From: Escherichia phage ECO07P1
Length of the DNA stretch: 64,000 bases
Strand: one strand, 5' to 3'
Sequence record: OP172784
Shown piece by piece: positions 2-63,238 of the stretch. The notes beneath the pieces were generated by a model that saw only the letters and a list, made by a program, of their open reading frames with translations, made no database searches and was not told the DNA's origin. Numbering within the stretch: the first letter of the stretch is position 1; each line of letters starts with the position of its first letter. Both the position numbers and the translations under genes were made by a program.

Positions 2-532
2 AAATGTTGCTCCTGGAAGGTAGGAGCAGTAATTGAAAAGAATGGACGTATTATTTCTACTGGGTATAATGGTTCGCCCGCAGGCGGTGTGAACTGTTGT
101 GATTATGCTGCTGAGCAAGGTTGGTTGCTGAATAAGCCTAAACATACTATCATTCAAGGTCATAAGCCCGAATGTGTATCGTTTGGTTCAACTGATCGTT
201 TTGTCTTAGCGAAAGAACACCGTAGTGCTCACTCTGAATGGTCGTCTAAAAATGAAATTCATGCTGAACTAAATGCAATTTTGTTTGCTGCACGAAATGG
301 TTCTTCAATTGAAGGTGCTACTATGTATGTAACACTTTCTCCTTGCCCAGATTGTGCAAAAGCGATAGCTCAATCTGGAATTAAAAAGCTGGTTTATTGC
401 GAAACATACGATAAGAATAAACCTGGCTGGGATGATATTCTGCGAAATGCAGGTATTGAAGTGTTCAATGTTCCTAAGAAAAACTTGAATAAGTTAAATT
501 GGGAAAATATCAACGAATTCTGTGGTGAATAA
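2..532 (+). CDS. cd: dCMP deaminase, 5'-truncated at window edge
   Basis: Frame is open from window start (..KCCSWKVGAVIEKNGRIISTGYNGSPAGG upstream of the listed ORF); deaminase zinc motifs HAE (HAELNAI) and PCxxC (SPCPDCAKA); matches T4 Cd from memory. Confidence 0.9.
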   Translation, partial: KCCSWKVGAVIEKNGRIISTGYNGSPAGGVNCCDYAAEQGWLLNKPKHTIIQGHKPECVSFGSTDRFVLAKEHRSAHSEWSSKNEIHAELNAILFAARNGSSIEGATMYVTLSPCPDCAKAIAQSGIKKLVYCETYDKNKPGWDDILRNAGIEVFNVPKKNLNKLNWENINEFCGE

Positions 533-768
533 TGAAATTTCGTTTGGTACAACTCACAGCAATTAGTTCTTATTCTAATGAGAATATTTCATTTGCTGTA
601 GAGTATAAGAAATATTTTTTCTCTAAATGGAAACAGTATTATAAGTCAGAATGGGTTTGTATTGATAGGCCGTATAGTTGGAAATCTGATTTAGAAAAAT
701 GCCAAAAATTGCTTTCCACTCTTAAAGAACGTGGAACAACCCATATTAAAACTGTAATAGGTAAATAA
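532..768 (+). CDS. hypothetical small early protein (78 aa)
   Basis: ORF start overlaps cd stop (TAATG); same strand, tight packing. Confidence 0.45.
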   Translation: MKFRLVQLTAISSYSNENISFAVEYKKYFFSKWKQYYKSEWVCIDRPYSWKSDLEKCQKLLSTLKERGTTHIKTVIGK

Positions 769-1077
769 ATGAAACTGACGACTGAACAAAAAGTAGCAAT
801 TCGTGAAATTTTGAAAACTAAATTGTCCATGGGTATTTCAAACGTGGTTTTTGAAAAGTCTGATGGTACTATTCGTACTATGAAAGGCACTCGTGATGCT
901 GACTTTATGCCAACTATGCAAACCGGTAAATTGACTGAATCTACTCGGAAAGAATCTATTGATATGATTCCAGTATTTGATGTTGAGCTTGGTGCATGGC
1001 GAGGTTTTTCTATTGACAAATTGATTTCCGTTAATGGTATGAAAGTTGAGCATTTGCTTCAATTTATTGGTAAATAA
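769..1077 (+). CDS. hypothetical protein (102 aa)
   Basis: ORF immediately follows previous stop; position corresponds to T4 31.x small genes. Confidence 0.45.
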   Translation: MKLTTEQKVAIREILKTKLSMGISNVVFEKSDGTIRTMKGTRDADFMPTMQTGKLTESTRKESIDMIPVFDVELGAWRGFSIDKLISVNGMKVEHLLQFIGK

Positions 1078-1078
1078 A

Positions 1079-1103
1079 TGCTTTAAGAATTATTTGTTAT
1101 TAT
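1079..1103 (+). promoter_or_regulatory. MotA-dependent middle promoter (MotA box TGCTTTA + -10 TATTAT, 12-nt spacer) upstream of gene 31
   Basis: AATGCTTTA at 1077-1085, TATTAT at 1098-1103; block is identical to 60711-60735. Confidence 0.55.
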
Positions 1104-1133
1104 TAATTCATCTGTTAACAAAAAGGAAAAACG

Positions 1134-1469
1134 ATGTCTGAAGTACAACAGCTACCAATTCGTGCTGTCGGTGAATATGTTATTTTAGTTTCTGAACCTG
1201 CACAAGCCGGTGATGAAGAAGTTACAGAATCAGGACTTATTATCGGTAAACGTGTTCAAGGTGAAGTTCCTGAACTGTGTGTAATTCACTCTGTTGGTCC
1301 TGATGTTCCTGAAGGTTTCTGTGAAGTTGGTGATTTGACTTCTCTTCCAGTTGGTCAAATTCGAAACGTTCCGCATCCTTTTGTAGCTCTGGGTCTTAAG
1401 CAGCCAAAAGAAATTAAACAAAAATTCGTTACCTGTCACTATAAAGCTATTCCGTGTCTTTATAAGTGA
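1134..1469 (+). CDS. 31: co-chaperonin for GroEL (GroES-like), gp31
   Basis: 111 aa; translation [22 protein letters not shown].. matches T4 gp31 from memory; RBS AAGGAAAAACGATG; MotA-type middle promoter upstream. Confidence 0.85.
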
Positions 1470-1479
1470 TATAAATAAT

Positions 1480-1487
1480 AATATGAA
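1480..1487 (+). promoter_or_regulatory. late promoter-like TATAAATA upstream of rIII
   Basis: Exact TATAAATA; about 130 nt upstream of the rIII start, so assignment is tentative. Confidence 0.35.
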
Positions 1488-1616
1488 TTGGATGTCGGAA
1501 TAATAAGTTAACCGAACAATTCTATGTGGTAGTCTACAACTGAGAGATCTGTCGAAAGAAGATGAAATTCAGAAGAACGTGACTACCGAGTTTTAATCTC
1601 TAACGAGAATTTTTAA

Positions 1617-1865
1617 ATGATTAAACAATTACAACACGCTCTTGAACTGCAACGAAACGCATGGAATAATGGTCACGAAAACTATGGTGCATCTATTGAT
1701 GTTGAAGCCGAAGCTCTTGAAATCCTGCGTTATTTCAAACATCTGAATCCTGCTCAAACTGCATTAGCTGCTGAGCTTCAGGAAAAAGATGAACTTAAGT
1801 ATGCTAAGCCTCTGGCTTCTGCTGCACGAAAAGCAGTTCGTCACTTTGTGGTAACACTGAAGTAA
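1617..1865 (+). CDS. rIII: rIII lysis-inhibition accessory protein
   Basis: 82 aa, same length and sequence as recalled T4 RIII; lies between gene 31 and ligase-side small ORFs as in T4. Confidence 0.8.
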   Translation: MIKQLQHALELQRNAWNNGHENYGASIDVEAEALEILRYFKHLNPAQTALAAELQEKDELKYAKPLASAARKAVRHFVVTLK

Positions 1866-2058
1866 TTTATTGGAGAGTCACTGCCTTAGTGTGAAGTTAA
1901 AACGAGGAGCCGTCGAACTTTGTTTTACGGTGTACCTCTTGAATGATGACGGGTTTATGGTTATCCTGTCGTTAAATATCCAAAACCTATGTTCCCCTTG
2001 AGGGCTTGCGCAGGCAATGCCAATAAGTCCTGCATTTTCATTTAAAAGAGAATTTATA

Positions 2059-2235
2059 ATGGCAAAACAAGTTAAAGCAAAGAAAGCAGTTGAAAAGAAA
2101 GTTGGTGATTCTAAACGCGCTGGCTACAAGCGTGGGTCGAACTCTCGTATCAATCAAACTGTTGAGAAGATCATGCGTCGAGCACGTGCGGTTCTTCGAG
2201 ATGATGCTTCTCGTTTTGGTAAGCAGAAAGCATAA
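2059..2235 (+). CDS. small lysine/arginine-rich hypothetical protein (58 aa from ATG at 2059)
   Basis: ORF MAKQVKAKKAVEKK..; followed directly by a strong hairpin terminator at 2239-2266. Confidence 0.35.
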   Translation: MAKQVKAKKAVEKKVGDSKRAGYKRGSNSRINQTVEKIMRRARAVLRDDASRFGKQKA

Positions 2236-2238
2236 GTT

Positions 2239-2266
2239 GAGGACTCCTTCGGGAGTCCTTTTTTAT
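2239..2266 (+). terminator. intrinsic terminator hairpin
   Basis: AGGACTCC-TTCG-GGAGTCCT followed by TTTTTTATTTT. Confidence 0.7.
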
Positions 2267-2288
2267 TTTCCAAAGATTGCACAAAGTT

Positions 2289-2338
2289 GTTTACAGTATA
2301 GTTCCTTTGTGATAGTATTATCTTACACAAACAAAGGA
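2289..2338 (+). promoter_or_regulatory. early promoter cassette (GTTTAC -35, TGa-TAGTAT extended -10) embedded in an inverted repeat that overlaps the downstream RBS
   Basis: GTTTAC 2289-2294; -10 at 2313-2318; arms TCCTTTGT (2303-2310) and ACAAAGGA (2331-2338). Confidence 0.55.
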
Positions 2339-2345
2339 GAATAAA

Positions 2346-2678
2346 ATGAAAACGATTAATCTGAACGCTACAGTTAAAACTAAATGCTTCAATGGTAAAT
2401 ATGATGAAACTATGTGGTTCTTAATGGCAGTTGAAGGTGATATTATTGAAGTAGAAACAACAGAAGGTATGGGAACAGATTTCACCTTTACAATTCAAGT
2501 TCATAATTTCTTTACTGGTTGGATTTATGAATTGAATACAGTAATCGTTGGAAAAATTGAACAAAATGAATTGGGTGAATGGTATTATGTTACAGCTCGT
2601 CAACGTGCCGAACGCTTAATTGAGAAGATGAAAAAAGTTGGTAAACTTGACATGCAGCACTGGAAAGTAGTAAAATAA
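2346..2678 (+). CDS. hypothetical early protein (110 aa)
   Basis: ORF with strong RBS AAGGAGAATAAAATG and early promoter cassette at 2289-2318. Confidence 0.5.
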   Translation: MKTINLNATVKTKCFNGKYDETMWFLMAVEGDIIEVETTEGMGTDFTFTIQVHNFFTGWIYELNTVIVGKIEQNELGEWYYVTARQRAERLIEKMKKVGKLDMQHWKVVK

Positions 2679-2746
2679 TTGTTTACTTTGGTACAGGATA
2701 TGATATTATATACCTGTACCGCAATTAAACATCTCGGAGAATAAAA

Positions 2747-3112
2747 ATGAATTACATCAACTTTGAACGTAAATATGTTTCTAACGGTATTGCAGGTTCT
2801 ATTGATACTATCTGCCTTTGGAAACATCAAAATGGATCAGTATGCGAAATTGAACAGTATATGACTCCTAACTACGTTTATATGCGATTTGAAAATGGCA
2901 TTACGGTTTCAATCACGAAAGAAGGTTCTTCTTTTAAAATCGCTTTGGATGATGATTTTCGTCAACGTGATTTAGGGACTCATCCTTGCTGGAATGGCGT
3001 TAATCGTAAGCTTCTGGTTAAAACTTGGATTCGTCATATTCTGAGTAATAGAGCTAAACCTGAGCATCTTGAAGCAATCTTTGATGTAGTTCTTAACGAA
3101 TTTGATATTTAA
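2747..3112 (+). CDS. hypothetical protein (121 aa)
   Basis: ORF with RBS GGAGAATAAAAATG; hairpin AAGGGGCTTCGGCCCCTT downstream at 3121-3138. Confidence 0.5.
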   Translation: MNYINFERKYVSNGIAGSIDTICLWKHQNGSVCEIEQYMTPNYVYMRFENGITVSITKEGSSFKIALDDDFRQRDLGTHPCWNGVNRKLLVKTWIRHILSNRAKPEHLEAIFDVVLNEFDI

Positions 3113-3120
3113 AATAAAAT

Positions 3121-3138
3121 AAGGGGCTTCGGCCCCTT
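3121..3138 (+). terminator. stem-loop (UUCG tetraloop)
   Basis: AAGGGGC-TTCG-GCCCCTT; no long T-run, so may act as an RNA stability element rather than a terminator. Confidence 0.4.
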
Positions 3139-3153
3139 ACTGAGGAAAATACT

Positions 3154-3441
3154 ATGTTTATGACTACTTATTTTGATACTCGTAAAAACTTCTGCGAAGT
3201 AGTTTTCTCTAAGGCGCCTAAAGACCTTCCTGCTCATTTGCAGCCTACCAGTGAATCGATTAAAAACTATGTTAATGTAGTATGTCCTTTAGAGTTCCGT
3301 ACTGTAAATGGGCGTGATACTCTAGCTATCACTAAACTCAACCGTGAAATTGACATTGACCCTTCAATCGCGCGCGAAATTAACATTTCTGATATCGGCG
3401 GCGGTAATGTTAAATCGCATGGTTTTCAGATGAGGTTCTAA
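3154..3441 (+). CDS. hypothetical protein (95 aa)
   Basis: ORF with RBS GAGGAAAATACTATG. Confidence 0.45.
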   Translation: MFMTTYFDTRKNFCEVVFSKAPKDLPAHLQPTSESIKNYVNVVCPLEFRTVNGRDTLAITKLNREIDIDPSIAREINISDIGGGNVKSHGFQMRF

Positions 3442-3638
3442 TGAAATTCTTTTTAGGTCAAACTGTTGAATTAAAGGGAGTTGGTATACCTGGATTAATT
3501 TCTAAGGTTCTACCTCCATTTAAATGGAGTGGTATTCAAATAAAAGAGGCTTATATTGTTTCCTGGGTAGATGGAAATGAAGACCTTCGTATGGGTGATG
3601 AATTATCTCCTATCTACGGATTAAAGGAATTAATATGA
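3441..3638 (+). CDS. hypothetical protein (65 aa)
   Basis: ORF start overlaps previous stop (TAATG). Confidence 0.4.
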   Translation: MKFFLGQTVELKGVGIPGLISKVLPPFKWSGIQIKEAYIVSWVDGNEDLRMGDELSPIYGLKELI

Positions 3639-5128: not shown

Positions 5129-5397
5129 TGTTTGTCGTTCACACTATTTATGAAAATGAAGGTAATACTACGCGTGATTACGGTCACGTAAATCAATTTT
5201 TTAGATGCAATCCAGAATTCCGAGCTCAAAAAGACGAACGAATTTTTAAAAAATGTGTAGAGCAAGGTTTCATTTACGTCAAGCACTGGATGCAAGGAAA
5301 TAAAGTTAGAACTACATATCATAAGTCTTTGACTGAGCTTAATGATGAATTGATTTATAATAGAGCTGTAAACCAAACTTTGAAGGATGAGCAATGA
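5128..5397 (+). CDS. hypothetical protein (89 aa)
   Basis: ORF start overlaps previous stop; stop overlaps ligase start. Confidence 0.45.
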   Translation: MFVVHTIYENEGNTTRDYGHVNQFFRCNPEFRAQKDERIFKKCVEQGFIYVKHWMQGNKVRTTYHKSLTELNDELIYNRAVNQTLKDEQ

Positions 5398-6854
5398 TTC
5401 TTAAAATTCTGAACGAAATAGCATCTATTGGTTCAACTAAGCAGAAGCAAGCAATTCTTGAAAAGAATAAAGATAATGAATTGCTTAAACGAGTATATCG
5501 TCTAACTTATTCTCGTGGGTTACAGTATTATATCAAGAAATGGCCTAAACCTGGTATTGCTACCCAGAGTTTTGGAATGCTGACTCTTACAGATATGCTC
5601 GACTTCATTGAATTCACGTTAGCTACTCGGAAATTGACTGGAAATGCTGCAATTGAGGAATTAACTGGATATATCACTGATGGTAAAAAGGATGATGTTG
5701 AAGTTTTGCGTCGAGTTATGATGCGAGACCTTGAATGCGGTGCTTCAGTATCTATTGCAAACAAAGTTTGGCCAGGTTTAATTCCTGAACAACCTCAAAT
5801 GCTGGCAAGTTCTTATGATGAAAAGGGCATTAATAAGAATATCAAATTTCCAGCCTTTGCCCAGTTAAAAGCAGATGGAGCTCGGTGTTTTGCTGAAGTT
5901 AGAGGTGATGAATTAGATGATGTTCGTCTTTTATCACGAGCTGGCAATGAATATCTAGGATTAGATCTTCTTAAGGAAGAGTTAATCAAAATGACTGCTG
6001 AAGCCCGCCAGATTCATCCAGAAGGTGTGTTAATTGATGGCGAATTGGTATACCATGAGCAAGTTAAAAAGGAACCAGAAGGCCTAGATTTTCTTTTTGA
6101 TGCTCCTGAAATTAGTAAAGCTAAAGAATTCGCCGAAGTAGCTGAATCACGTACTGCATCTAATGGCATCGCCAATAAATCTTTAAAGGGAACCATTTCT
6201 GAAAAAGAAGCCAAATGCATGAAGTTTCAGGTCTGGGATTATGTCCCGTTGGTAGAAATATACGGTCTTCCTGCATTTCGTTTGAAATATGATGTACGTT
6301 TTTCTAAACTAGAACAAATGACATCAGGTTATGATAAAGTAATTTTAATTGAAAACCAGGTAGTAAATAACCTAGATGAAGCTAAGGTAATTTACAAAAA
6401 GTATATTGACCAAGGTCTTGAGGGTATTATTCTCAAAAATACCGATGGATTGTGGGAAAATGCTCGTTCAAAAAATCTTTATAAATTTAAAGAAGTAATT
6501 GATGTTGATTTAAAAATTGTAGGAATTTATCCTCACCGTAAAGACCCTACTAAAGCGGGCGGATTTATTCTTGAATCAGAGTGTGGAAAAATTAAGGTAA
6601 ATGCTGGTTCAGGCTTAAAAGATAAAGCTGGCGTAAAATCACATGAACTTGACCGTACTCGCATTATGGAAAACCAAAATTATTATATTGGAAAAATTCT
6701 AGAATGTGAATGCAATGGTTGGTTAAAATCTGACGGCCGCACTGATTACGTTAAATTATTTCTTCCGATTGCGATTCGTTTACGTGAAGATAAAACTAAA
6801 GCTAATACATTCGAGGATGTATTTGGTGATTTTCATGAGGTAACTGGTCTATGA
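5394..6854 (+). CDS. 30: ATP-dependent DNA ligase gp30
   Basis: 486 aa; adenylation motif KxDGxR (QLKADGARCF); translation matches T4 DNA ligase from memory. Confidence 0.95.
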   Translation: MILKILNEIASIGSTKQKQAILEKNKDNELLKRVYRLTYSRGLQYYIKKWPKPGIATQSFGMLTLTDMLDFIEFTLATRKLTGNAAIEELTGYITDGKKDDVEVLRRVMMRDLECGASVSIANKVWPGLIPEQPQMLASSYDEKGINKNIKFPAFAQLKADGARCFAEVRGDELDDVRLLSRAGNEYLGLDLLKEELIKMTAEARQIHPEGVLIDGELVYHEQVKKEPEGLDFLFDAPEISKAKEFAEVAESRTASNGIANKSLKGTISEKEAKCMKFQVWDYVPLVEIYGLPAFRLKYDVRFSKLEQMTSGYDKVILIENQVVNNLDEAKVIYKKYIDQGLEGIILKNTDGLWENARSKNLYKFKEVIDVDLKIVGIYPHRKDPTKAGGFILESECGKIKVNAGSGLKDKAGVKSHELDRTRIMENQNYYIGKILECECNGWLKSDGRTDYVKLFLPIAIRLREDKTKANTFEDVFGDFHEVTGL

Positions 6855-7088: not shown

Positions 7089-9185
7089 ATGATGGAACTT
7101 ATTACAGAATTATTTGACGAAGATACTACTCTTCCGATTACAAACTTAAATCCAAAGAAGAAAATACCGCAAATTTTTTCAGTTCATGTTGATGACGCAA
7201 TTGAACAACCAGGCTTTCGTTTATGTACCTATACATCTGGAGGTGATACTAATCGCGATTTAAAAATGGGCGATAAAATGATGCATATTGTTCCTTTTAC
7301 ATTAACTGCTAAAGGTTCAATTGCTAAATTAAAAGGTCTCGGTCCAAGCCCAATTAATTATATCAATTCAGTTTTTACTGTTGCAATGCAGACGATGCGT
7401 CAGTATAAAATTGATGCCTGTATGCTCCGTATTCTTAAGTCTAAAACTGCTGGTCAAGCTCGACAAATTCAAGTTATTGCTGATAGACTTATCCGTAGTC
7501 GTTCGGGTGGCAGATACGTCCTTCTTAAGGAACTCTGGGATTACGATAAAAAGTATGCATATATTCTTATACATCGCAAAAATGTATCACTAGAAGACAT
7601 TCCAGGAGTTCCGGAAATTAGCACCGAGCTCTTTACTAAAGTTGAATCGAAGGTCGGTGATGTTTATATCAATAAAGATACTGGAGCTCAAGTAACTAAA
7701 AATGAGGCAATTGCTGCATCTATTGCGCAAGAAAATGATAAACGTTCTGACCAAGCTGTAATCGTTAAAGTTAAAATTTCCCGTAGAGCAATTGCACAAA
7801 GTCAATCATTAGAATCTTCTAGATTTGAAAGCGAATTATTCCAGAAGTATGAATCTACCGCAGCTAATTTCAATAAACCTGCTACCGCTCCTTTAATTCC
7901 CGAAGCAGAAGAAATGAAACTTGGAATTAATTCATTGGCTTCTAAAACTAAGGCAGCAAAAATTATTGCTGAAGGAACTGCAGATGAACTTCACTATGAT
8001 TATAAATTCTTTTCAAAAAGTGAGGTTAATGAAGTTTCTGAAAAAATTAAAGATGTAATTTTTAACGCGATCAAAAATGAACCGACTACTTCAATAAAAT
8101 GTTTAGAGAAGTATGCAGCAGCTATTAATAAATTCTTTGAAGAATATAAAGATACTTGGCTTGATAAACATAATAAAACCCGTAAAGGACAGCCAGATGA
8201 AGTCTGGGAAGAAATAACTAAAAATTCCTGGAACGCAGCAAAAACTAAATTCCTCAAACGAATGATTTATAGCTTTTCTGGAATTGGTGCAGGTCCAATG
8301 ATTGATATTACTATTGCCCGTGATGGTTCTAAATATACTCCATCACAAAAGCGCGGCATTAGAGAGTATTGTGGTTCAGGATATACTGACATCAATAATC
8401 TTCTTTTAGGACGCTACAATCCAGAACGATATGATGTAATGAGTGAAAAAGAAATTGAATCTGCTATAAATAACTTAGATTCAGCTTTTGAAAATGGTGA
8501 CCGTATACCGGAAGGCATTACAGTTTATCGTGCACAAAGTATGACTGCTCCTATATACGAAGCACTAGTTAAAAATAAAGTGTTCTATTTCAGAAATTTT
8601 GTATCTACTTCTTTAACTCCTATCATTTTTGGGCGTTTTGGAATTACACATGCTGGTATTGGTCTTTTAGAACCAGAAGCTCGTAATGAATTAACAGTTG
8701 ATAAAAATGAAGAAGGAATAACTATTAATCCAAACGAAATAAGAGCGTATAAAGAAAATCCTGAATACGTTAAAGTTCAAATAGGATGGGCAATTGATGG
8801 AGCTCATAAAGTTAATGTTGTATATCCAGGAAGTCTCGGAATAGCAACAGAAGCTGAAGTTATTCTACCACGCGGATTGATGGTCAAAGTTAATAAAATA
8901 ACTGATGCTTCTAATAACGACGGAACAACATCTAATAATACAAAACTCATTCAAGCTGAAGTTATGACTACGGAAGAACTCACCGAATCAGTCATTTATG
9001 ACGGTGACCGTCTAATGGAAACTGGTGAAGTAGTTGCAATGACAGGTGATATTGAAATAGAAGACAGAGTTGACTTTGCATCATTTGTTTCATCAAATGT
9101 TAAACAAAAAGTAGAATCATCTCTTGGAATTATTGCGTCTTGCATAGATATTACAAACATGCCTTACAAGTTCGTTCAAGGATAA
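7089..9185 (+). CDS. alt: Alt-like ADP-ribosyltransferase (virion-packaged), copy 1
   Basis: 698 aa; N-terminus M(M)ELITELFDEDTTLPITN matches T4 Alt from memory; ART-type R / STS / ExE elements (YRAQS.., FVSTS, EAEVILPRG); late promoter TATAAATA at 7061-7068. Confidence 0.85.
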   Translation: MMELITELFDEDTTLPITNLNPKKKIPQIFSVHVDDAIEQPGFRLCTYTSGGDTNRDLKMGDKMMHIVPFTLTAKGSIAKLKGLGPSPINYINSVFTVAMQTMRQYKIDACMLRILKSKTAGQARQIQVIADRLIRSRSGGRYVLLKELWDYDKKYAYILIHRKNVSLEDIPGVPEISTELFTKVESKVGDVYINKDTGAQVTKNEAIAASIAQENDKRSDQAVIVKVKISRRAIAQSQSLESSRFESELFQKYESTAANFNKPATAPLIPEAEEMKLGINSLASKTKAAKIIAEGTADELHYDYKFFSKSEVNEVSEKIKDVIFNAIKNEPTTSIKCLEKYAAAINKFFEEYKDTWLDKHNKTRKGQPDEVWEEITKNSWNAAKTKFLKRMIYSFSGIGAGPMIDITIARDGSKYTPSQKRGIREYCGSGYTDINNLLLGRYNPERYDVMSEKEIESAINNLDSAFENGDRIPEGITVYRAQSMTAPIYEALVKNKVFYFRNFVSTSLTPIIFGRFGITHAGIGLLEPEARNELTVDKNEEGITINPNEIRAYKENPEYVKVQIGWAIDGAHKVNVVYPGSLGIATEAEVILPRGLMVKVNKITDASNNDGTTSNNTKLIQAEVMTTEELTESVIYDGDRLMETGEVVAMTGDIEIEDRVDFASFVSSNVKQKVESSLGIIASCIDITNMPYKFVQG

Positions 9186-9188
9186 ATC

Positions 9189-11246
9189 ATGGAACTTATT
9201 ACAGAATTATTTGACGGCGCTTCGGCGCCGGTTGTTAACTTAAATCCTAAGCATAAAATACCTCAAATTTTCGCTATTCAAGCCGGTGAAGAAAGTGTGC
9301 TTCCTGGATTTAGATTTTGTACATACACCTCTGGCGGTGATACAAATAAAAACGTTAAGCCAGGCGATAAAATGATGCATATCGTAATGATAGGTGTTAA
9401 TGAGAAATTATCATTAGTTAAACTTAAAAACTTGGGTGGAAATCCAATTGGTGTTATTAATGCGGTTTTTGATACTGCTCTTCAAACAATGAAACAGTAT
9501 AAAATTGACGCATGCCTATTCCGCGTACTAAAAAGTAAAACAAATGGCGCAGCTCGTCAAATGCAAGTTATTGCTGACCGTTTAGTACGTACTAAAGGAG
9601 CAGGTCGATATGTTCTTTTAAAGGAAATCTGGGATTATGATAAAAAGTATGCATATATTATGGTTTACCGTAAAAATGCCAATTTAGAAGACATTCCAGG
9701 TGTACCTCCTATTTCAACTGAGTTATTCACAAAAGTTGAATCAAAGGTTGGTGATGTTTATGTAGATGTTAAAACAGGTAATGCTGTTCCTAAAGCTGTT
9801 GCTGTTGCTGCTTCTATTGCTTTAGAAAATGATAAGCGCACGGATCAAGCTGTTATTCAGAAAACTAAAATTAGTCGTCGATTAGCAGCGCAAGCTCAAT
9901 ATTCTACTGTAGATGCTTCGCTTCAGGGTGATAGCTTCGCTGCCAAGAAATATCAAGAGTTTGAATCTAAAGTTCCGGTATATAAAGCAGAAGGACCAAT
10001 GAACTCTGGCGTTATTCAGATTGGTTCAAACTTCAGCAAAGGAGCTATCGGTGGTATGAGAAGTGCTTCTCGTTTTAAATCTAGCGATTATGAACTAGAA
10101 AACTTCCGAAATCATATTGCATTGGCTCATGCGCGTTTACGTGATCCATCTATCAAGTTACAGAGCGATATAACATATCAAGGTTCTCAGGAATATTTAA
10201 AGAATAAAGAATTTTTTGATTATAAAACTGATAAAATTTTAAGCGATCTTGCTGACATTAATATTTCTAATAGCTTTGATGTTATTAAGAAAATCGTCAA
10301 TGATTTAGTTAAAGGTTCTAAAGCCACGCCAGACGAAAAGATAGCTATTGTTCAATTTGTCATGAATGGCATTTATAAATTGATTAATGAGTCTGCTTCT
10401 CAAGCGTATGAATATGCAAGTACCGAAGTACCCCCAAAAGGATTAACTCAGGCTGAGTCTGATGTAATTGAAGATTATTGTGCAGATTCATATGTTGAAA
10501 TGAACTCGTTCCTCTTGGGTAAACCAGATTCTACCCGTGAAGAATACATGGAACGAGCTATTAAACACATCGAGACGCTGGATTCTGCATTCGCCAAAGG
10601 ATCAGTTCTTCCTCCAGGAACTACGCTTTATCGTGGACAAGAAGTTACTTTTAAAACTTTACGCCATAATATTGAAAATAAAATGTTCTATTTCAAGAAC
10701 TTCGTATCAACATCGCTTAAACCAAATATCTTCGGTGAGTATGGTAAAAACTATATGGCCCTAGATGATTCTGGTGCAGTATTTTCTGGTGAAGGAGAAG
10801 GTTCAGTTGATGCTGAAGATTTAATGCATATGGGCAGTCACTCTGCTTACGCGAATGAAGATGCTGAAACTAGCGTGGGTATGGTAATTAAAGGGGCTGA
10901 GCGAATCAAAGTTATCGTTCCAGGTCATTTATCAGGATTTCCATCAGAAGCTGAAGTTATTCTACCGCGCGGAATTTTACTGAAGATTAATAAAGTAAGT
11001 ACGTACTTTATGAAAGAAACTGCTTATAACAAGTATCTAATAGAAGGTACAATCGTTCCTCCTTCTGAACAATTAGAGGAATCGGTATATGATGGCGACC
11101 ATCTAATGGAAACTGGCGAAGTTCGTCCAATGGCTGGATTTAATCAATTCCTTGTAGAAGAATCAAAAGAAGAGGAAAACGAAGTTTCTCAAATCTTAGC
11201 TTCTTTGGTTAACATTAACGGAATGTCTAAAAAGTTCAAAATGTAG
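9189..11246 (+). CDS. Alt-like ADP-ribosyltransferase paralog, copy 2
   Basis: 685 aa; N-terminus and C-terminal ART core (YRGQE.., FVSTS, EAEVILPRG) conserved with copy 1, central region divergent; starts 3 nt after copy 1 stop. Confidence 0.8.
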   Translation: MELITELFDGASAPVVNLNPKHKIPQIFAIQAGEESVLPGFRFCTYTSGGDTNKNVKPGDKMMHIVMIGVNEKLSLVKLKNLGGNPIGVINAVFDTALQTMKQYKIDACLFRVLKSKTNGAARQMQVIADRLVRTKGAGRYVLLKEIWDYDKKYAYIMVYRKNANLEDIPGVPPISTELFTKVESKVGDVYVDVKTGNAVPKAVAVAASIALENDKRTDQAVIQKTKISRRLAAQAQYSTVDASLQGDSFAAKKYQEFESKVPVYKAEGPMNSGVIQIGSNFSKGAIGGMRSASRFKSSDYELENFRNHIALAHARLRDPSIKLQSDITYQGSQEYLKNKEFFDYKTDKILSDLADINISNSFDVIKKIVNDLVKGSKATPDEKIAIVQFVMNGIYKLINESASQAYEYASTEVPPKGLTQAESDVIEDYCADSYVEMNSFLLGKPDSTREEYMERAIKHIETLDSAFAKGSVLPPGTTLYRGQEVTFKTLRHNIENKMFYFKNFVSTSLKPNIFGEYGKNYMALDDSGAVFSGEGEGSVDAEDLMHMGSHSAYANEDAETSVGMVIKGAERIKVIVPGHLSGFPSEAEVILPRGILLKINKVSTYFMKETAYNKYLIEGTIVPPSEQLEESVYDGDHLMETGEVRPMAGFNQFLVEESKEEENEVSQILASLVNINGMSKKFKM

Positions 11247-25152: not shown

Positions 25153-26434
25153 ATTCATCAACGATAATTTTTGGCAGTTTAACACCTAATAAAACAGACA
25201 AATCTGAACGACCCGCCATTTTATCCATGTCTCCACCATCAATTATTCTTGCTTCTTTTTCATCTTTTGCTACAGTGTAAGGATTTGCAGATAAAGCATA
25301 TCTAACTAATAAACCGATAGATGGCTGCAAACTTTCTGGATCGACTACAACTTTAAATGCACCTACATGTTCAGGGTCATCTAAGTCAAGACCTTCTGTA
25401 TACGGAGCATAGAAAATTGATCCGACGATTTCTTTTTCACCGATATTTTCTACTACACCAACGATTACATAATCTAATGGGCTGTTAGTATCGCAATAAA
25501 GCGGTAAACCATTAGCTAAGAACCCGTAGGCATTTTGTGAAAGATATTTGTCATCTTCTGGTTTATGTTTTAACCAACCTGATGCAGCAAGAATCGCAGC
25601 GGCACGAGCTGAAGCAACACAGAACGTTGCAGTATAAGTTGATTCTTTTTGGATATGCGAAACCATTTCACACACCATTCGGTATAATGAACGACCAGCT
25701 TCAGGTGCAGATGCATAACTCAAATCAATGAATCCAGTATCAGTAATTCCTGTAACTTTATAGCGTTTTGACACTGTAATCAAAGACTGTAGAATATCTT
25801 TATTAATTTCATCTGCCATTTCAGTTGCAAGCAAATCTTCCAAGAAATTAGGAGCATCGAATCCATTTGCTTCTAAATCTTGTGCTAATTCAACCGTGAT
25901 GCCAGTTTTAAGTTTACGAGATTTAACTGCGGTTTGCCATTTATTAATCTGGAATCTAGCATCAGCAATTTCGCTATCAGAGCTTTCAAATTTGCTTGTT
26001 ACTGCAGCATCAGAAAATAGACGAACCTTTAAAAGAACGATTGCAATCTGAAGAGCTAATTCTAAATCGCTTTCTTCAATATCAGCAAATGGTGTATCTT
26101 CTAATACTTTATAAACGATGTTATTATATTTGAATAAATCGCCTTTATTGAGAGTTAATTTAGACTCTTCTGTTAATTCTGTGATTTGTTCTCGGTCTAC
26201 ATATCCAGCTTCTCCAGCGTAAGTAGCACCAGTTTTAAACGTAAATTCGTTATCTGGGTTAAGGTATTTGATACCATAAAAAGCAGCAACAGGTTGATTA
26301 GTTCTTTGCGTTGCTACAATGTCAGAATATATTAATTTAGTGGTAGCGCGAGTCAAAGCAACGAGATTTGGGCGACCGATTGAGTTGCTATTCGTTGTGG
26401 TTGATTCGCGCAGAAGTTCGTTGATTTTAGCCAT
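25151..26434 (-). CDS. 24: head vertex protein gp24
   Basis: 427 aa; capsid-fold paralog directly downstream of gp23; late promoter at 26462-26469. Confidence 0.85.
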   Translation of the reverse strand: MAKINELLRESTTTNSNSIGRPNLVALTRATTKLIYSDIVATQRTNQPVAAFYGIKYLNPDNEFTFKTGATYAGEAGYVDREQITELTEESKLTLNKGDLFKYNNIVYKVLEDTPFADIEESDLELALQIAIVLLKVRLFSDAAVTSKFESSDSEIADARFQINKWQTAVKSRKLKTGITVELAQDLEANGFDAPNFLEDLLATEMADEINKDILQSLITVSKRYKVTGITDTGFIDLSYASAPEAGRSLYRMVCEMVSHIQKESTYTATFCVASARAAAILAASGWLKHKPEDDKYLSQNAYGFLANGLPLYCDTNSPLDYVIVGVVENIGEKEIVGSIFYAPYTEGLDLDDPEHVGAFKVVVDPESLQPSIGLLVRYALSANPYTVAKDEKEARIIDGGDMDKMAGRSDLSVLLGVKLPKIIVDE

Positions 26435-58462: not shown

Positions 58463-59159
<697 letters not shown>

Positions 59160-59171
59160 TTTCACAAAGTT

Positions 59172-59210
59172 GTTTACACGGGGTTTTAGTTGTGATACTA
59201 TTACCCTATC
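59172..59210 (+). promoter_or_regulatory. early promoter cassette upstream of first IP-like gene
   Basis: GTTTAC 59172-59177, TGa-TACTAT at 59196-59201, followed by ACCCTATC. Confidence 0.6.
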
Positions 59211-59237
59211 AAAACAAATGAGTGATTGGAGAATAAA

Positions 59238-59510
59238 ATGAAAACATTTAAAGAATTTATCAATGAAGCTGCTTTTAACGAAAAAGTAAAAATTAGCAAA
59301 GCTGTCAAGACTATGATTGATAACATCAATTACCTATATGGTATTGATTTAACTGACTATGTAACAGTTGGTAACAAACGTAACTATTTCGTGTTTGACA
59401 TCTCTGAACTTGACCAGAATCAAATTAACAACATTGAGCGTTTTGCTAATGATAAGGGTCTTCGTCATGAGTCAGCGGGTTATAAAAAATACGCAATTTA
59501 TTTAAAATGA
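59238..59510 (+). CDS. internal-protein-like small protein with N-terminal capsid targeting sequence
   Basis: Starts MKTFKEFINE|AA.., matching the T4 IP capsid-targeting sequence/gp21 cleavage context (MKTYQEFIAE|A recalled); preceded by early promoter cassette and RBS GGAGAATAAAATG. Confidence 0.6.
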   Translation: MKTFKEFINEAAFNEKVKISKAVKTMIDNINYLYGIDLTDYVTVGNKRNYFVFDISELDQNQINNIERFANDKGLRHESAGYKKYAIYLK

Positions 59511-59545
59511 GTTTACTTTTAAATAGGGTTGTGGTACTATTATCT
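59511..59545 (+). promoter_or_regulatory. early promoter cassette upstream of second IP-like gene
   Basis: GTTTAC 59511-59516, TGg-TACTAT extended -10. Confidence 0.55.
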
Positions 59546-59570
59546 CATCAAAATTAATTAGGAAAATAAA

Positions 59571-59879
59571 ATGAAAACATTTAAAGAATTTATCAATGAA
59601 GCGGCTGCACCAAAGACATTCATTATTTATACTCAAGCGGGTCTTGATGATGAGTATGCGGAAGCAATTCTGAGGTCACTTGCTAAGAACGGTGTTGAAG
59701 TAATTGCTTCGGACTTTAAGAAAGGGGCTTCCGAGATGTTTATTTCTATAACTAAAGGATCTAAAGCTAAAATCAAATCATCATTCGGTGTTGCTCGTAC
59801 CGATCAAATCGACAATCATGACTTTAAACAAACTGGTGCTAAACGACAGAATACAATTGCATCACGCGGAATAAAATAG
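59571..59879 (+). CDS. internal-protein-like small protein with capsid targeting sequence
   Basis: Starts MKTFKEFINE|AAAPK..; own early promoter cassette. Confidence 0.6.
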   Translation: MKTFKEFINEAAAPKTFIIYTQAGLDDEYAEAILRSLAKNGVEVIASDFKKGASEMFISITKGSKAKIKSSFGVARTDQIDNHDFKQTGAKRQNTIASRGIK

Positions 59880-59891
59880 TTTATAAAAACC

Positions 59892-59930
59892 GTTTACTTT
59901 TAGATAGGGTAGTGATACTATTACCCTATC
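59892..59930 (+). promoter_or_regulatory. early promoter cassette with flanking inverted repeat (promoter-early-stem-loop-like)
   Basis: GTTTAC 59892-59897; arms GATAGGGTA and TACCCTATC flank the -10 GTGATACTAT. Confidence 0.6.
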
Positions 59931-59949
59931 AACTACTGAGGAGAATAAA

Positions 59950-60174
59950 ATGAAAACATGTAAAAAATTTATTGTAGAAGCTAAAAGACACGAAGACGAA
60001 CTGCCTTTTGTTTCAAAAACCTTTGATGGAACATTGGCTGATTTTAAAAAAATTCCTAATGATAAACTTGCTAAATTGGTTGGTTCTATTAGTGAAAAAG
60101 ATGGCAAGGTCACATTTTCTGCTCAAGGCGTTGCCAATCTCAAGAAACTTTTGAAAGCCGCTGGTGTTGAATAA
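59950..60174 (+). CDS. internal-protein-like small protein with degenerate capsid targeting sequence
   Basis: Starts MKTCKKFIVE|AK..; own early promoter cassette and RBS GAGGAGAATAAAATG. Confidence 0.5.
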   Translation: MKTCKKFIVEAKRHEDELPFVSKTFDGTLADFKKIPNDKLAKLVGSISEKDGKVTFSAQGVANLKKLLKAAGVE

Positions 60175-60177
60175 ATT

Positions 60178-60216
60178 GTTTACATAGGGTTTTAGTTGTG
60201 ATACTATTACCCTATC
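60178..60216 (+). promoter_or_regulatory. early promoter cassette with flanking inverted repeat
   Basis: GTTTAC 60178-60183; arms ATAGGGT and ACCCTAT; identical leader ACCCTATCAACTACTGAGGAGAATAAAATG as at 59920-59952. Confidence 0.6.
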
Positions 60217-60235
60217 AACTACTGAGGAGAATAAA

Positions 60236-60418
60236 ATGAAACGTTGTGAATTAATTCGAAATGTTGCTATTGCAATTTCTGCTTCTGCTTTTAGTTTTTC
60301 AATGTTTGTTGGATTTATATGCGGATTATTGACTACAGCAGAAAATGTTTTTTCACTTGTAGTAGCATTTTTAATTGGTTTAATTGCTATCGTTATGGAT
60401 AAAATTTCTAAAGGTTAA
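60236..60418 (+). CDS. small membrane protein (two predicted hydrophobic helices)
   Basis: 60 aa; hydrophobic stretches AIAISASAFSFSMFVGFICGLL and VFSLVVAFLIGLIAIV; own early promoter cassette. Confidence 0.45.
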   Translation: MKRCELIRNVAIAISASAFSFSMFVGFICGLLTTAENVFSLVVAFLIGLIAIVMDKISKG

Positions 60419-60420
60419 TA

Positions 60421-60708
60421 ATGATTCTTTATGCGAAAGTATCGTCCGTTGAAAATGGATATAAATATGATCAAGATGCGGCTAAAGCCTTGATTGATGA
60501 TTATGGCATTTTAACATGTTTTGAAGTTGAAAAGGTTTACATTGACCGTTCATCTTCTCAAGTTAAATTAGTAAAGGAAGACCGTAAATTTAATACAGTA
60601 AATTTTGATTTCTTTATTGAAACAGAAAAAGGTCCTCTTGAATATGATATTTTCAAGAATCCTTTGGGTCTTGAATGCATCGTAAACATGTATTATCATA
60701 AATGGTAA
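60421..60708 (+). CDS. hypothetical protein (95 aa)
   Basis: ORF start overlaps previous stop (TAATAATG). Confidence 0.45.
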   Translation: MILYAKVSSVENGYKYDQDAAKALIDDYGILTCFEVEKVYIDRSSSQVKLVKEDRKFNTVNFDFFIETEKGPLEYDIFKNPLGLECIVNMYYHKW

Positions 60709-60710
60709 AT

Positions 60711-60735
60711 ATGCTTTAAGAATTATTTGTTATTA
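60711..60735 (+). promoter_or_regulatory. MotA-dependent middle promoter upstream of tRNA cluster
   Basis: Same ATGCTTTAAGAATTATTTGTTATTATTAA block as at 1077-1107. Confidence 0.5.
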
Positions 60736-60805
60736 TTAACTCATATCACACTGATTAATACCCTCTATCATCAAGGGTTCTTGCTTGAGAGCCTTTGTTA
60801 ATAAT

Positions 60806-60878
60806 TGGGAATTAGCCAAGTTGGTAAGGCACTGGATTTTGATTCCAGGATGCAAAGGTTCGAGTCCTTTATTCCCAG
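60806..60878 (+). tRNA. tRNA-Gln (anticodon UUG)
   Basis: Hand-folded cloverleaf: acceptor TGGGAAT/ATTCCCA, anticodon stem CTGGA/TCCAG with loop TTTTGAT, T-arm AAAGG-TTCGAGT-CCTTT. Confidence 0.8.
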
Positions 60879-60879
60879 C

Positions 60880-60966
60880 GCGAGAATGGTCAAATTGGTA
60901 AAGGCACAGCACTTAAAATGCTGCGGAATGATTTCCTTGTGGGTTCGAGTCCCACTTCTCGCACCA
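60880..60966 (+). tRNA. tRNA-Leu (anticodon UAA), class II with long variable arm
   Basis: Acceptor GCGAGAA/TTCTCGC, anticodon loop CTTAAAA, long variable arm, T-loop TTCGAGT, 3' CCA encoded. Confidence 0.8.
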
Positions 60967-60971
60967 AATTT

Positions 60972-61045
<74 letters not shown>

Positions 61046-61055
61046 ATTTAATTTA

Positions 61056-61130
61056 CTCCGTGTAGCTCAGTTTGGTAGAGCGTCTGCTTTGGGAGCAGAA
61101 TGTCGCAGGTTCAAATCCTGCCGCGGAGAC
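61056..61130 (+). tRNA. tRNA-Pro (anticodon UGG)
   Basis: Acceptor CTCCGTG/CGCGGAG, anticodon stem TCTGC/GCAGA with loop TTTGGGA, T-loop TTCAAAT. Confidence 0.8.
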
Positions 61131-61131
61131 T

Positions 61132-61221
61132 GGAGGCGTGGCAGAGTGGTTTAATGCACCGGTCTTGAAAACCGGCAGTCGCTCCGGCGACTCATAGGTT
61201 CAAATCCTATCGCCTCCGCCA
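61132..61221 (+). tRNA. tRNA-Ser (anticodon UGA), class II
   Basis: Acceptor GGAGGCG/CGCCTCC, anticodon stem CCGGT/ACCGG with loop CTTGAAA, long variable arm, CCA encoded. Confidence 0.8.
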
Positions 61222-61226
61222 GTTTT

Positions 61227-61302
61227 GCTGATTTAGCTTAGTAGGTAGAGCAACTCACTTGTAATGAGAAGGTCGGCGGTTCGATTCCGTCAATCAGCAC
61301 CA
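61227..61302 (+). tRNA. tRNA-Thr (anticodon UGU)
   Basis: Acceptor GCTGATT/AATCAGC, anticodon loop CTTGTAA, T-loop TTCGATT, CCA encoded. Confidence 0.8.
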
Positions 61303-61303
61303 A

Positions 61304-61378
61304 GGCCCTGTAGCTGGAAGGTTCAAGCAAGCGACTCATAATCGCCAGATGGTGGTTCAATTCCACCCAGGGCCACCA
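61304..61378 (+). tRNA. tRNA with CAU anticodon (Ile via lysidine modification, or Met)
   Basis: Acceptor GGCCCTG/CAGGGCC, anticodon loop CTCATAA, T-loop TTCAATT, CCA encoded; the T4 equivalent is recalled as annotated Ile. Confidence 0.75.
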
Positions 61379-61391
61379 AATTAAGAATTAA

Positions 61392-61478
61392 GGGGAGTTA
61401 TCCCGTAGAGGTAGCGGTGTGGACTGTAAATCCATTGTCATTGCGACTCGGGTGGTTCGACTCCATCACTCCCCACCA
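61392..61478 (+). tRNA. tRNA-Tyr (anticodon GUA), class II
   Basis: Acceptor GGGGAGT/ACTCCCC, anticodon stem GTGGA/TCCAT with loop CTGTAAA, 15-nt variable arm as expected for bacterial-type tRNA-Tyr, T-loop TTCGACT, CCA encoded. Confidence 0.7.
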
Positions 61479-61482
61479 ATTT

Positions 61483-61557
61483 GGATGTGTAGCTCAATGG
61501 CAGAGCGATCGCCTGTTAAGCGATTGGTTATAGGTTCGAATCCTATCACGTCCGCCA
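61483..61557 (+). tRNA. tRNA-Asn (anticodon GUU)
   Basis: Acceptor GGATGTG/CACGTCC (one G-U), anticodon stem ATCGC/GCGAT with loop CTGTTAA, T-loop TTCGAAT, CCA encoded. Confidence 0.7.
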
Positions 61558-61561
61558 AATC

Positions 61562-61637
61562 CGAGGCATAGCTCAGAAGGAAGAGCAAGGACCTTCTAAG
61601 TCCTAGGTCGTAGGTTCGATCCCTACTGCCTCGACCA
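61562..61637 (+). tRNA. tRNA-Arg (anticodon UCU)
   Basis: Acceptor CGAGGCA/TGCCTCG, anticodon stem AGGAC/GTCCT with loop CTTCTAA, T-loop TTCGATC, CCA encoded. Confidence 0.8.
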
Positions 61638-63164: not shown

Positions 63165-63200
63165 GTTTACATCCCCGTTCTTCCATGGTACTATACAACT
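63165..63200 (+). promoter_or_regulatory. early promoter with A/T-rich upstream element
   Basis: TTTTTAAAAAATTTTTT tract, GTTTAC 63165-63170, GG-TACTAT -10, leader TATCAACTACTGA. Confidence 0.55.
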
Positions 63201-63238
63201 ATCAACTACTGATACAGAAAAACAACTTGGAGAATGAA

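Follow-up and report, generated by a model that had tools for sequence, protein, structure and literature searches.

The stretch analysed here, 64,000 nt of the Escherichia phage ECO07P1 (sequence record OP172784; referred to below as the window), raises a simple question: why does a short block of sequence in front of gene 31 recur almost unchanged in front of the tRNA genes, and what is this block? The window belongs to a T4-like phage of the genus Tequatrovirus, is shown on the strand complementary to that of the T4 map and corresponds to approximately 71.8–135.8 kb of T4; the T4 motA and asiA genes, at 161–164 kb, thus fall outside it. Bases 500–3500 are 100% identical to Escherichia phage ECO07P3, and a tblastn search with gp31 gave many Tequatrovirus homologues of 100% identity. 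Sequence at the tRNA end is mosaic and reaches at most 95–98% identity to any deposited phage. The features needed for the analysis are the following.

769–1077, + strand: homologue of 31.1 (T4 annotation); its stop TAA at 1075–1077 abuts and overlaps the MotA box
1069–1111, + strand: repeat copy 1, orthologue of T4 P31, from the GGTAAATA lead-in to TCAT at the start site
1076–1085, + strand: MotA box AAATGCTTTA of P31, the first two bases of which are the last two of the 31.1 stop
1095–1103, + strand: extended −10 element of P31 (TGn at 1095–1097, TATTAT at 1098–1103)
1110, + strand: predicted start of the gene 31 middle transcript, homologous to T4 131540, with a 24-nt leader before the ATG at 1134
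1134–1469, + strand: gene 31, GroES-like head-assembly co-chaperonin, predicted to be driven by copy 1
60421–60708, + strand: homologue of trna.2 (T4 annotation); its stop TAA at 60706–60708 lies just 5' of the MotA box
60704–60744, + strand: repeat copy 2, orthologue of T4 PtRNAE (PtRNAsc1), with 34 nt identical in T4
60709–60718, + strand: MotA box ATATGCTTTA of the tRNA promoter, with the trna.2 stop just upstream
60728–60736, + strand: extended −10 element of the tRNA promoter (TGn at 60728–60730, TATTAT at 60731–60736)
60743, + strand: predicted start of the tRNA precursor transcript, homologous to T4 72593
60743–60805, + strand: 63-nt 5' leader of the tRNA precursor, with a conserved hairpin at approximately 60772–60797
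60806–61637, + strand: ten tRNA genes (Gln, Leu, Gly, Pro, Ser, Thr, Met, Tyr, Asn, Arg), predicted to be driven by copy 2

The duplication of the block at two far-apart loci, which had been reported in a sequence-only reading of the window, was recovered by an exact string search: the 29-mer ATGCTTTAAGAATTATTTGTTATTATTAA occurs at 1078–1106 and again at 60711–60739, both times on the + strand. The two copies are therefore in direct orientation, with a start-to-start spacing of 59,633 nt. No further copy of the 29-mer was found in the whole window with up to three mismatches allowed, and 100 dinucleotide-preserving shuffles produced no match to the repeat. Without gaps, the repeat extends over 34 nt with 97% identity, i.e., a single mismatch (1078–1111 and 60711–60744; repeat family D13), and with a 2-nt indel it reaches leftward through GGTAAATA to 1069 and 60704. 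This indel was part of the earlier description and is indeed present (GGTAAATAAATGC...TTAA at 1069–1106 versus GGTAAATATGC...TTAA at 60704–60739). The intervals previously given for the copies, 1064–1107 and 60702–60740, identify the right loci, although their ends are off by 1–5 nt.

Another duplication in the window involves two tandem paralogous ORFs, 7089–9185 (698 aa) and 9189–11246 (685 aa), located directly 3' of a 486-aa ORF of ligase size (5394–6854). These ORFs have common patches of 71–97% nucleotide identity at an offset of 2.09–2.10 kb (repeat families D1, D9, D12 and D14), and by position the pair looks like a duplicated alt (ADP-ribosyltransferase) gene.

Does the repeated unit include the stop codon of the upstream gene? 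Both copies contain the stop of the preceding ORF, as had been observed (TAA 1075–1077 of 31.1 and TAA 60706–60708 of trna.2), but the view that a stop codon plus a promoter was duplicated as one unit had to be abandoned, because the two stops are non-homologous and a different ORF ends in the MotA box in many relatives. The registers of the stops relative to the repeat differ (GGT AAA TAA in copy 1 versus TGG TAA in copy 2). In RB69 and many Tequatroviruses, an ORF of ~170 aa resembling RB69ORF151c, absent from the window and from T4, is placed between trna.2 and the tRNA promoter and ends with TTG CTT TAA inside the MotA box. It was located as follows.

693–1208 of locus L012 (RB69): RB69ORF151c-like ORF
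approximately 2790–3311 of locus L043: RB69ORF151c-like ORF
metagenome loci L069, L072, L075 and L083: RB69ORF151c-like ORF

At the gene 31 locus, all 26 IMG/VR loci examined, which represent many genera, have a MotA-type promoter behind the 31.1 stop; in each of them the stop directly adjoins the A/T-rich 5' side of the MotA box, and the surrounding sequence is variable. The conserved block begins at TGCTTTA. The GGTAAATA lead-in was rejected as a part of the repeat, since two unrelated ORFs end with it and genomes with the ORF151c-like ORF before the promoter lack it. Stop codons are found at the blocks because the genome is tightly packed, and the A/T-rich bases on the 5' side of the MotA box also serve to end the upstream ORF. 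The gene 31 locus offers a second promoter directly adjoining a stop codon: in the T4 record X54536.1 (locus L089), the depositors annotate a late promoter at 803–810 (approximately 1470–1477 of the window), right after the gene 31 stop and 5' of rIII.

What, then, is the conserved block? The consensus of T4 middle promoters is (a/t)(a/t)(a/t)TGCTTtA-N12(±1)-TAtaaT, with the MotA box centred near −30 (Hinton 2010, PMC2988021). Both blocks fit this description in having a MotA box, a TAnnnT −10 element at a distance of 12 ± 1 bp and a TGn motif; in both copies, TATTAT stands exactly 12 nt after TGCTTTA and is preceded by TGT. The strict pattern WWTGCTTYA-N12-TANNNT has three matches in 64 kb versus 0.33 expected, two of which are these blocks, and a scan of both blocks with the sigma-70 consensus revealed no −35/−10 promoter on the + strand. 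The third match to the strict pattern, TATGCTTTATCTGCAAATCCTTACACT at 25274–25300 on the − strand, may be a chance occurrence or another middle promoter.

Both blocks are present in T4, and the window copies align base for base with P31 and PtRNAE. The transcription start of P31 was placed at T4 131540 (Nivinskas, Raudonikene and Guild 1989) and that of PtRNAE (PtRNAsc1) at 72593 (Guild et al. 1988), both as listed in Hinton 2010 Table 1 (PMC2988021). In the T4 genome sequence (NC_000866.4), each of these positions is an A located 7 nt after TATTAT. Moreover, X54536.1 labels AATGCTTTA together with TATTAT as a "middle promoter", with the same 9 nt of the MotA box as the "-35 signal" and TATTAT as the "-10 signal". 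The alignment and this annotation confirm the MotA box and −10 element that had been recognised at the two loci, and the expectation that transcription starts 7–8 nt past TATTAT holds in T4, where 131540 and 72593 are each 7 nt downstream. Since the published T4 starts fall on the homologous A in both blocks, the reading of the blocks as promoters is correct, and their promoter nature is already known from T4. Judged by their orthology to T4 P31 and PtRNAE, the two blocks are the middle promoters of gene 31 and of the tRNA cluster. That gene 31 and the tRNA genes are expressed in a coordinated way in the middle mode is textbook T4 biology, and proposing it for this phage is no new inference. 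The T4 tRNAs were classed as "early" with a steady rise by RNA-seq (PMC9697503), so read-through from upstream early promoters also feeds the tRNA locus.

The mode of action of such promoters is sigma appropriation, which consists of AsiA remodelling, MotA bridging and the contact of sigma region 2 with the −10 element (PMC2988021; cryo-EM structure PMC6755090). For the T4 orthologues, the requirement for MotA and AsiA is known from the studies listed in Hinton 2010. By orthology to T4, AsiA would remodel region 4 of the host sigma-70 early in infection, and MotA would bind both sigma-70 and the MotA box near −30 (1076–1085 and 60709–60718). Sigma region 2 would read the extended −10 element TGn-TATTAT, and transcription would start at the A 7 nt downstream of TATTAT (1110 and 60743). 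The predicted products are a gene 31 mRNA with a short leader and a tRNA precursor with a structured leader of 63 nt. In this leader, folding gives a hairpin of 11 bp (−17.8 kcal/mol, z = −2.35). Both the hairpin and the leader motif ACCCTCTAT(C/T)A(C/T)CAA(A/G)GGT have been retained in genera from Tequatrovirus to Gelderlandvirus, and RB69 has at least one compensatory change. The leader matched no Rfam family, and in JS98-like phages there was no tRNA gene within the 70 nt examined 3' of it.

How are the two promoters distributed among related phages? With a 50-nt query, the block was detected in 727 phage records, 517 of them with a query coverage of 80% or more and typically with two places in each genome. 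Approximately 500 Tequatroviruses have just two dispersed copies each; for Mosigvirus and genera further removed, the same query detected one place only, the tRNA locus. In RB69, the tRNA promoter matches the window block at 28 of 29 positions versus only 24 of 29 for P31. The core of the tRNA promoter, TGCTTTAAG...TGTTATTATTAAT, is conserved in Tequatro-, Mosig-, Dhaka-, Gapriver-, Gelderland- and Winklervirus, and P31 is more variable. In many genera, the two loci are orthologues in conserved synteny, and in all complete genomes examined they are ~58–60 kb apart.

No third dispersed context of the block was found among the phage records and metagenome loci searched, the latter including 19 loci from a single metagenome scan. 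Several candidates were rejected. Metagenome locus L080, in which the block precedes a protein ORF, turned out to be another tRNA region; L068, L082, L091, L096, L105 and L108 were unrelated pattern matches; and L101, L102 and L107 contained a different middle promoter of another genus. In Escherichia phage BYEP02 (OR757454.1; locus L111), the apparent third place is a local tandem duplication in a fragmented assembly: 77 nt at 7319–7530, corresponding to the tRNA promoter and the first part of the leader, are duplicated. The duplicate copies bear different leader alleles (ATCGC and ACCGC), an ORF (7544–8152) occupies the tRNA-Gln position, and the duplication may be an assembly artefact, as the record contains many split genes. 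In Yersinia phage fHe-Yen9-01, no MotA-type promoter was found 5' of the first tRNA, and this outgroup was uninformative.

If both blocks are ordinary middle promoters, another important question is whether they are more alike than two such promoters need be. All 58 mapped T4 middle promoters on the minus strand were compared over 39 nt (−37 to +2), giving 1,653 pairs. With 34 of 39 positions identical, PtRNAE/P31 is the top T4 pair; the runner-up reaches 26 of 39, and the mean of all pairs is 16.75 (sd 2.6). The surplus identity sits in the 12-nt spacer (GAATTATT) and in positions −6 to +1 (TAA[T/C]TCA), which are free in the consensus, and the spacer and discriminator are unconstrained in the remaining 56 T4 middle promoters. 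The sequence TGTTATTAT is common to T4 P32, P52 and P55.8(2), and thus part of the PtRNAE/P31 identity is due to membership in a subtype.

The comparison of genera indicates that the two promoters also vary together. In Tequatrovirus, the paralogous promoters are identical at 35 of 39 positions within the genome, versus 29–31 of 39 for P31 and its orthologues in other genera (29–30 for Mosig-, Dhaka- and Gaprivervirus, 31 for Gelderlandvirus). The matches of the Tequatrovirus P31 to the tRNA promoters of four genera amount to 35, 33, 31 and 30 of 39. In the Gelderlandvirus STML-198, the P31 spacer AGAAATTCGTGT matches the phage's own tRNA-promoter spacer AGAAATTAGTGT at 11 of 12 positions; the P31 spacer of a sister Gelderlandvirus, AGAAAACCATGT, has a match of 8 of 12. 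Mosig-, Gapriver- and Winklervirus are not homogenised, with within-genome identities of 28, 28 and 27 of 39 and spacer identities of 7/12, 9/12 and 3/12, respectively. In a permutation test with 39-nt sequences anchored on the −10 element from seven hand-picked lineages, a design with few informative positions and no control promoter, the sum of within-genome P31–PtRNA identities was 209, versus 195.6 ± 4.7 for random pairings, and 20 of 5,040 permutations reached 209. For these hand-picked lineages and 39-nt sequences, the within-genome excess has p ~0.004–0.008 overall, ~0.007 with eight lineages and 0.038 when Tequatrovirus is left out. T4 P1 was considered as the control promoter and rejected, as it exists only in Tequatrovirus, gene 3 running straight into gene 1 elsewhere; since P1 is not conserved outside Tequatrovirus, the permutation test has no control promoter.

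Taken as a whole, the best explanation, in which we have considerable confidence, is that the blocks are orthologous middle promoters whose near-identity most likely comes from a common origin refreshed by occasional conversion. The co-variation of P31 and PtRNA suggests, and does not prove, occasional short-patch gene conversion. Most likely, both promoters would have a common origin and would have been refreshed by occasional short-patch events of the non-crossover type; in the ancestor of Tequatrovirus, the direction was probably from the tRNA promoter to P31. A more specific proposal, which we offer tentatively as a real possibility that could well fail, is that P31 and PtRNA evolve in concert: rare ectopic conversion, seeded by the MotA box and the extended −10 element, would repeatedly overwrite the 12-nt spacer, at least in the Tequatrovirus ancestor and in one Gelderlandvirus lineage, and would leave the gene for the co-chaperonin and the tRNA genes under one and the same promoter allele.

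Could the near-identity instead be purely vertical, reflecting an ancient duplication, or convergence on a "strong" subtype (TGCTTTAAG...TGTTATTATTAAT), held by purifying selection and involving no exchange? This is possible, if rather doubtful. The core of the tRNA promoter is very conserved across genera (26–35 of 39), TGTTATTAT recurs in P32, P52 and P55.8(2), and the P31 spacers of Tequatrovirus and VR5 differ at only 3 of 12 positions. The common polymorphisms point the same way. At −3, both T and C occur at both loci within Tequatrovirus (34 records with C at P31 and eight with T at PtRNA), and the T4-type C at −20 occurs at PtRNA once only, in ESh25; these T/C differences at −3 and −20 are single transitions that were searched for specifically, so recurrent mutation could yield them. 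On the other hand, purifying selection of this kind is not apparent in the spacer and discriminator of the 56 other T4 middle promoters, and the Tequatrovirus P31 is nearer to its tRNA-promoter paralogues than to P31 orthologues, with a co-variation of p ~0.004–0.008 over the hand-picked lineages. A further argument against a purely vertical history is provided by Mosigvirus S143_2 (MZ189261.1; loci L086 and L087), which has a Tequatrovirus-type tRNA promoter beside a Mosigvirus (RB69-type) P31; such mixed promoters indicate that the P31/PtRNA match is not forced by MotA or sigma preferences of the lineage.

Two phages deserve a separate description. In S143_2, the tRNA locus is a mosaic in which the segment with trna.2, the tRNA promoter and tRNA-Gln is of the Tequatrovirus type. 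The region of the tRNA locus is known to spread by SegB homing. Citrobacter phage PhiZZ6 (MT176424.1; 129532–129571 and 69406–69445) has the minority alleles at both loci: at −3, its P31 has C and its tRNA promoter has T. Compared with most Tequatroviruses, its promoters look swapped; this is one phage, and the pattern is compatible with chance.

A different possibility is that of a regulatory cassette which moves or shuffles: as the middle-promoter counterpart of PeSLs or PmSLs, the block would have been inserted at two loci and would drive modular gene shuffling. PmSLs with a Mot box and a TATTAT −10 element were described in vibriophage nt-1 (PMC4122927), PeSL-like early-promoter repeats flank internal-protein genes just upstream of the tRNA locus (59167–60250; repeat families D2–D7), and the ORF 5' of the tRNA promoter varies (trna.2 or the ORF151c-like ORF). 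We nevertheless consider this very unlikely: there are only two dispersed copies in the ~500 Tequatroviruses, the additional one in BYEP02 being a local tandem duplication; both loci are orthologous and syntenic in many genera; the ORF151c indel has its junction within the terminal part of trna.2, away from any second promoter copy; and the apparent third context, L080, is another tRNA region. Nor does either block have a stem-loop or terminator component, as no terminator-like stem-loop was found flanking the blocks, and upstream of each there is coding sequence.

Does the repeat represent a recombination hotspot at which crossing-over rearranges the genome by deleting or duplicating 59.6 kb? 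The copies are in direct orientation, and T4 recombination can use less than 50 bp of homology (Singer et al. 1982, as cited in PMC2839356). However, the interval contains ligase, baseplate, head, tail and packaging genes (T4 annotation), so its deletion would be lethal, and in all complete genomes examined the loci have stayed ~58–60 kb apart. A duplication of 60 kb, in turn, could not be packaged by the headful mechanism, the packaging limit of which is too small for it. Crossing-over as an active source of rearrangement is therefore highly improbable. As ~59.6 kb of essential genes would be lost or doubled by a crossover, survival would be possible only after exchange of the non-crossover type; the earlier suggestion that the repeat is a potential substrate for recombination can thus be kept, in a suggestive sense only, for non-crossover conversion and fails for crossover.

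A chance match of two A/T-rich intergenic stretches, conceivable in an A/T-rich genome in which short two-copy repeat families often arise by chance, has practically no probability and is refuted by the shuffles (0 of 100 gave a match), by the identity of the pair, which exceeds the average over all T4 middle-promoter pairs by 6.6 sd, and by the retention of both copies in hundreds of genomes.

For the annotation of the window, the gain from these results is small: it is enough to name the blocks as the middle promoters P31 and PtRNA and to mark 1110 and 60743 as their predicted starts. What the analysis adds is, first, that P31/PtRNAE is the most alike pair among the mapped T4 middle promoters and, second, that P31 and PtRNA co-vary within genomes across genera. 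If conversion between P31 and PtRNA is indeed the cause, they would represent a small, clean case of concerted promoter evolution in a virulent phage and a natural isogenic promoter pair for studying the effect of the sequence past +1 on middle-mode output.

How do the two blocks compare with known systems? The nearest parallel among repeated promoters is provided by the PeSL and PmSL cassettes of T4-type phages (Arbiol et al. 2010, PMC2839356; Comeau et al. 2014, PMC4122927), which are also short repeated promoter sequences and possible patches of homology; PmSLs, like the blocks, pair a TGCTT Mot box with a TATTAT −10 element (PMC4122927). In contrast to these cassettes, the blocks exist in two copies at conserved syntenic sites before conserved genes, with no terminator and no link to ORFan indels; they are not composites of a promoter and a stem-loop and do not have the many-copy, ORFan-flanking indel pattern, concentrated in hyperplastic regions, by which PeSLs and PmSLs are defined.

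The window also contains early-promoter cassettes (GTTTACA...TGATACTAT...GGAGAATAAAATGAAA), which occur in 59150–60275 as well as at 2267–2359 and 63186–63212. In the first of these regions, they precede the ORFs 59226–59510, 59571–59879 and 59950–60174, and a fourth copy stands before a small membrane ORF at 60236. The three ORFs have a common N-terminus, MKT(F/C)K(E/K)FI, which resembles the capsid-targeting sequence of T4 internal proteins, and the layout of 59150–60275 resembles the PeSL-flanked hyperplastic ipI region of T-even phages.

Among other middle promoters, T4 P32, which belongs to the TGTTATTAT subtype, has GAATTATGTGTTATTATTA in common with the tRNA promoter, especially that of the RB69 type, and PtRNAE and P32 are identical at 25 of 39 positions. 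P32 differs in its MotA box, which is offset and of a different sequence (TTGCTTACG), and in its start region, and its likeness to the tRNA promoter remains far below that between P31 and PtRNA.

The closest counterparts are the T4 promoters themselves. T4 P31 occupies the same place as copy 1, right after the 31.1 stop and 24 nt before the ATG of gene 31, and has the same MotA box, spacing, TGn-TATTAT element and start context; 33 of 34 bases are alike, the exception being a C for T at −20 in T4 (GAACTATT), a variant of P31 confined to T4 and its laboratory relatives (21 records). The tRNA clusters that follow the second promoter differ, the window having ten tRNAs and no segB, whereas T4 has eight tRNAs split by segB, followed by rnaC and rnaD. 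T4 PtRNAE itself is at the same place as copy 2, after the trna.2 stop and 63 nt before tRNA-Gln, and its 34-nt block is identical to that of the window.
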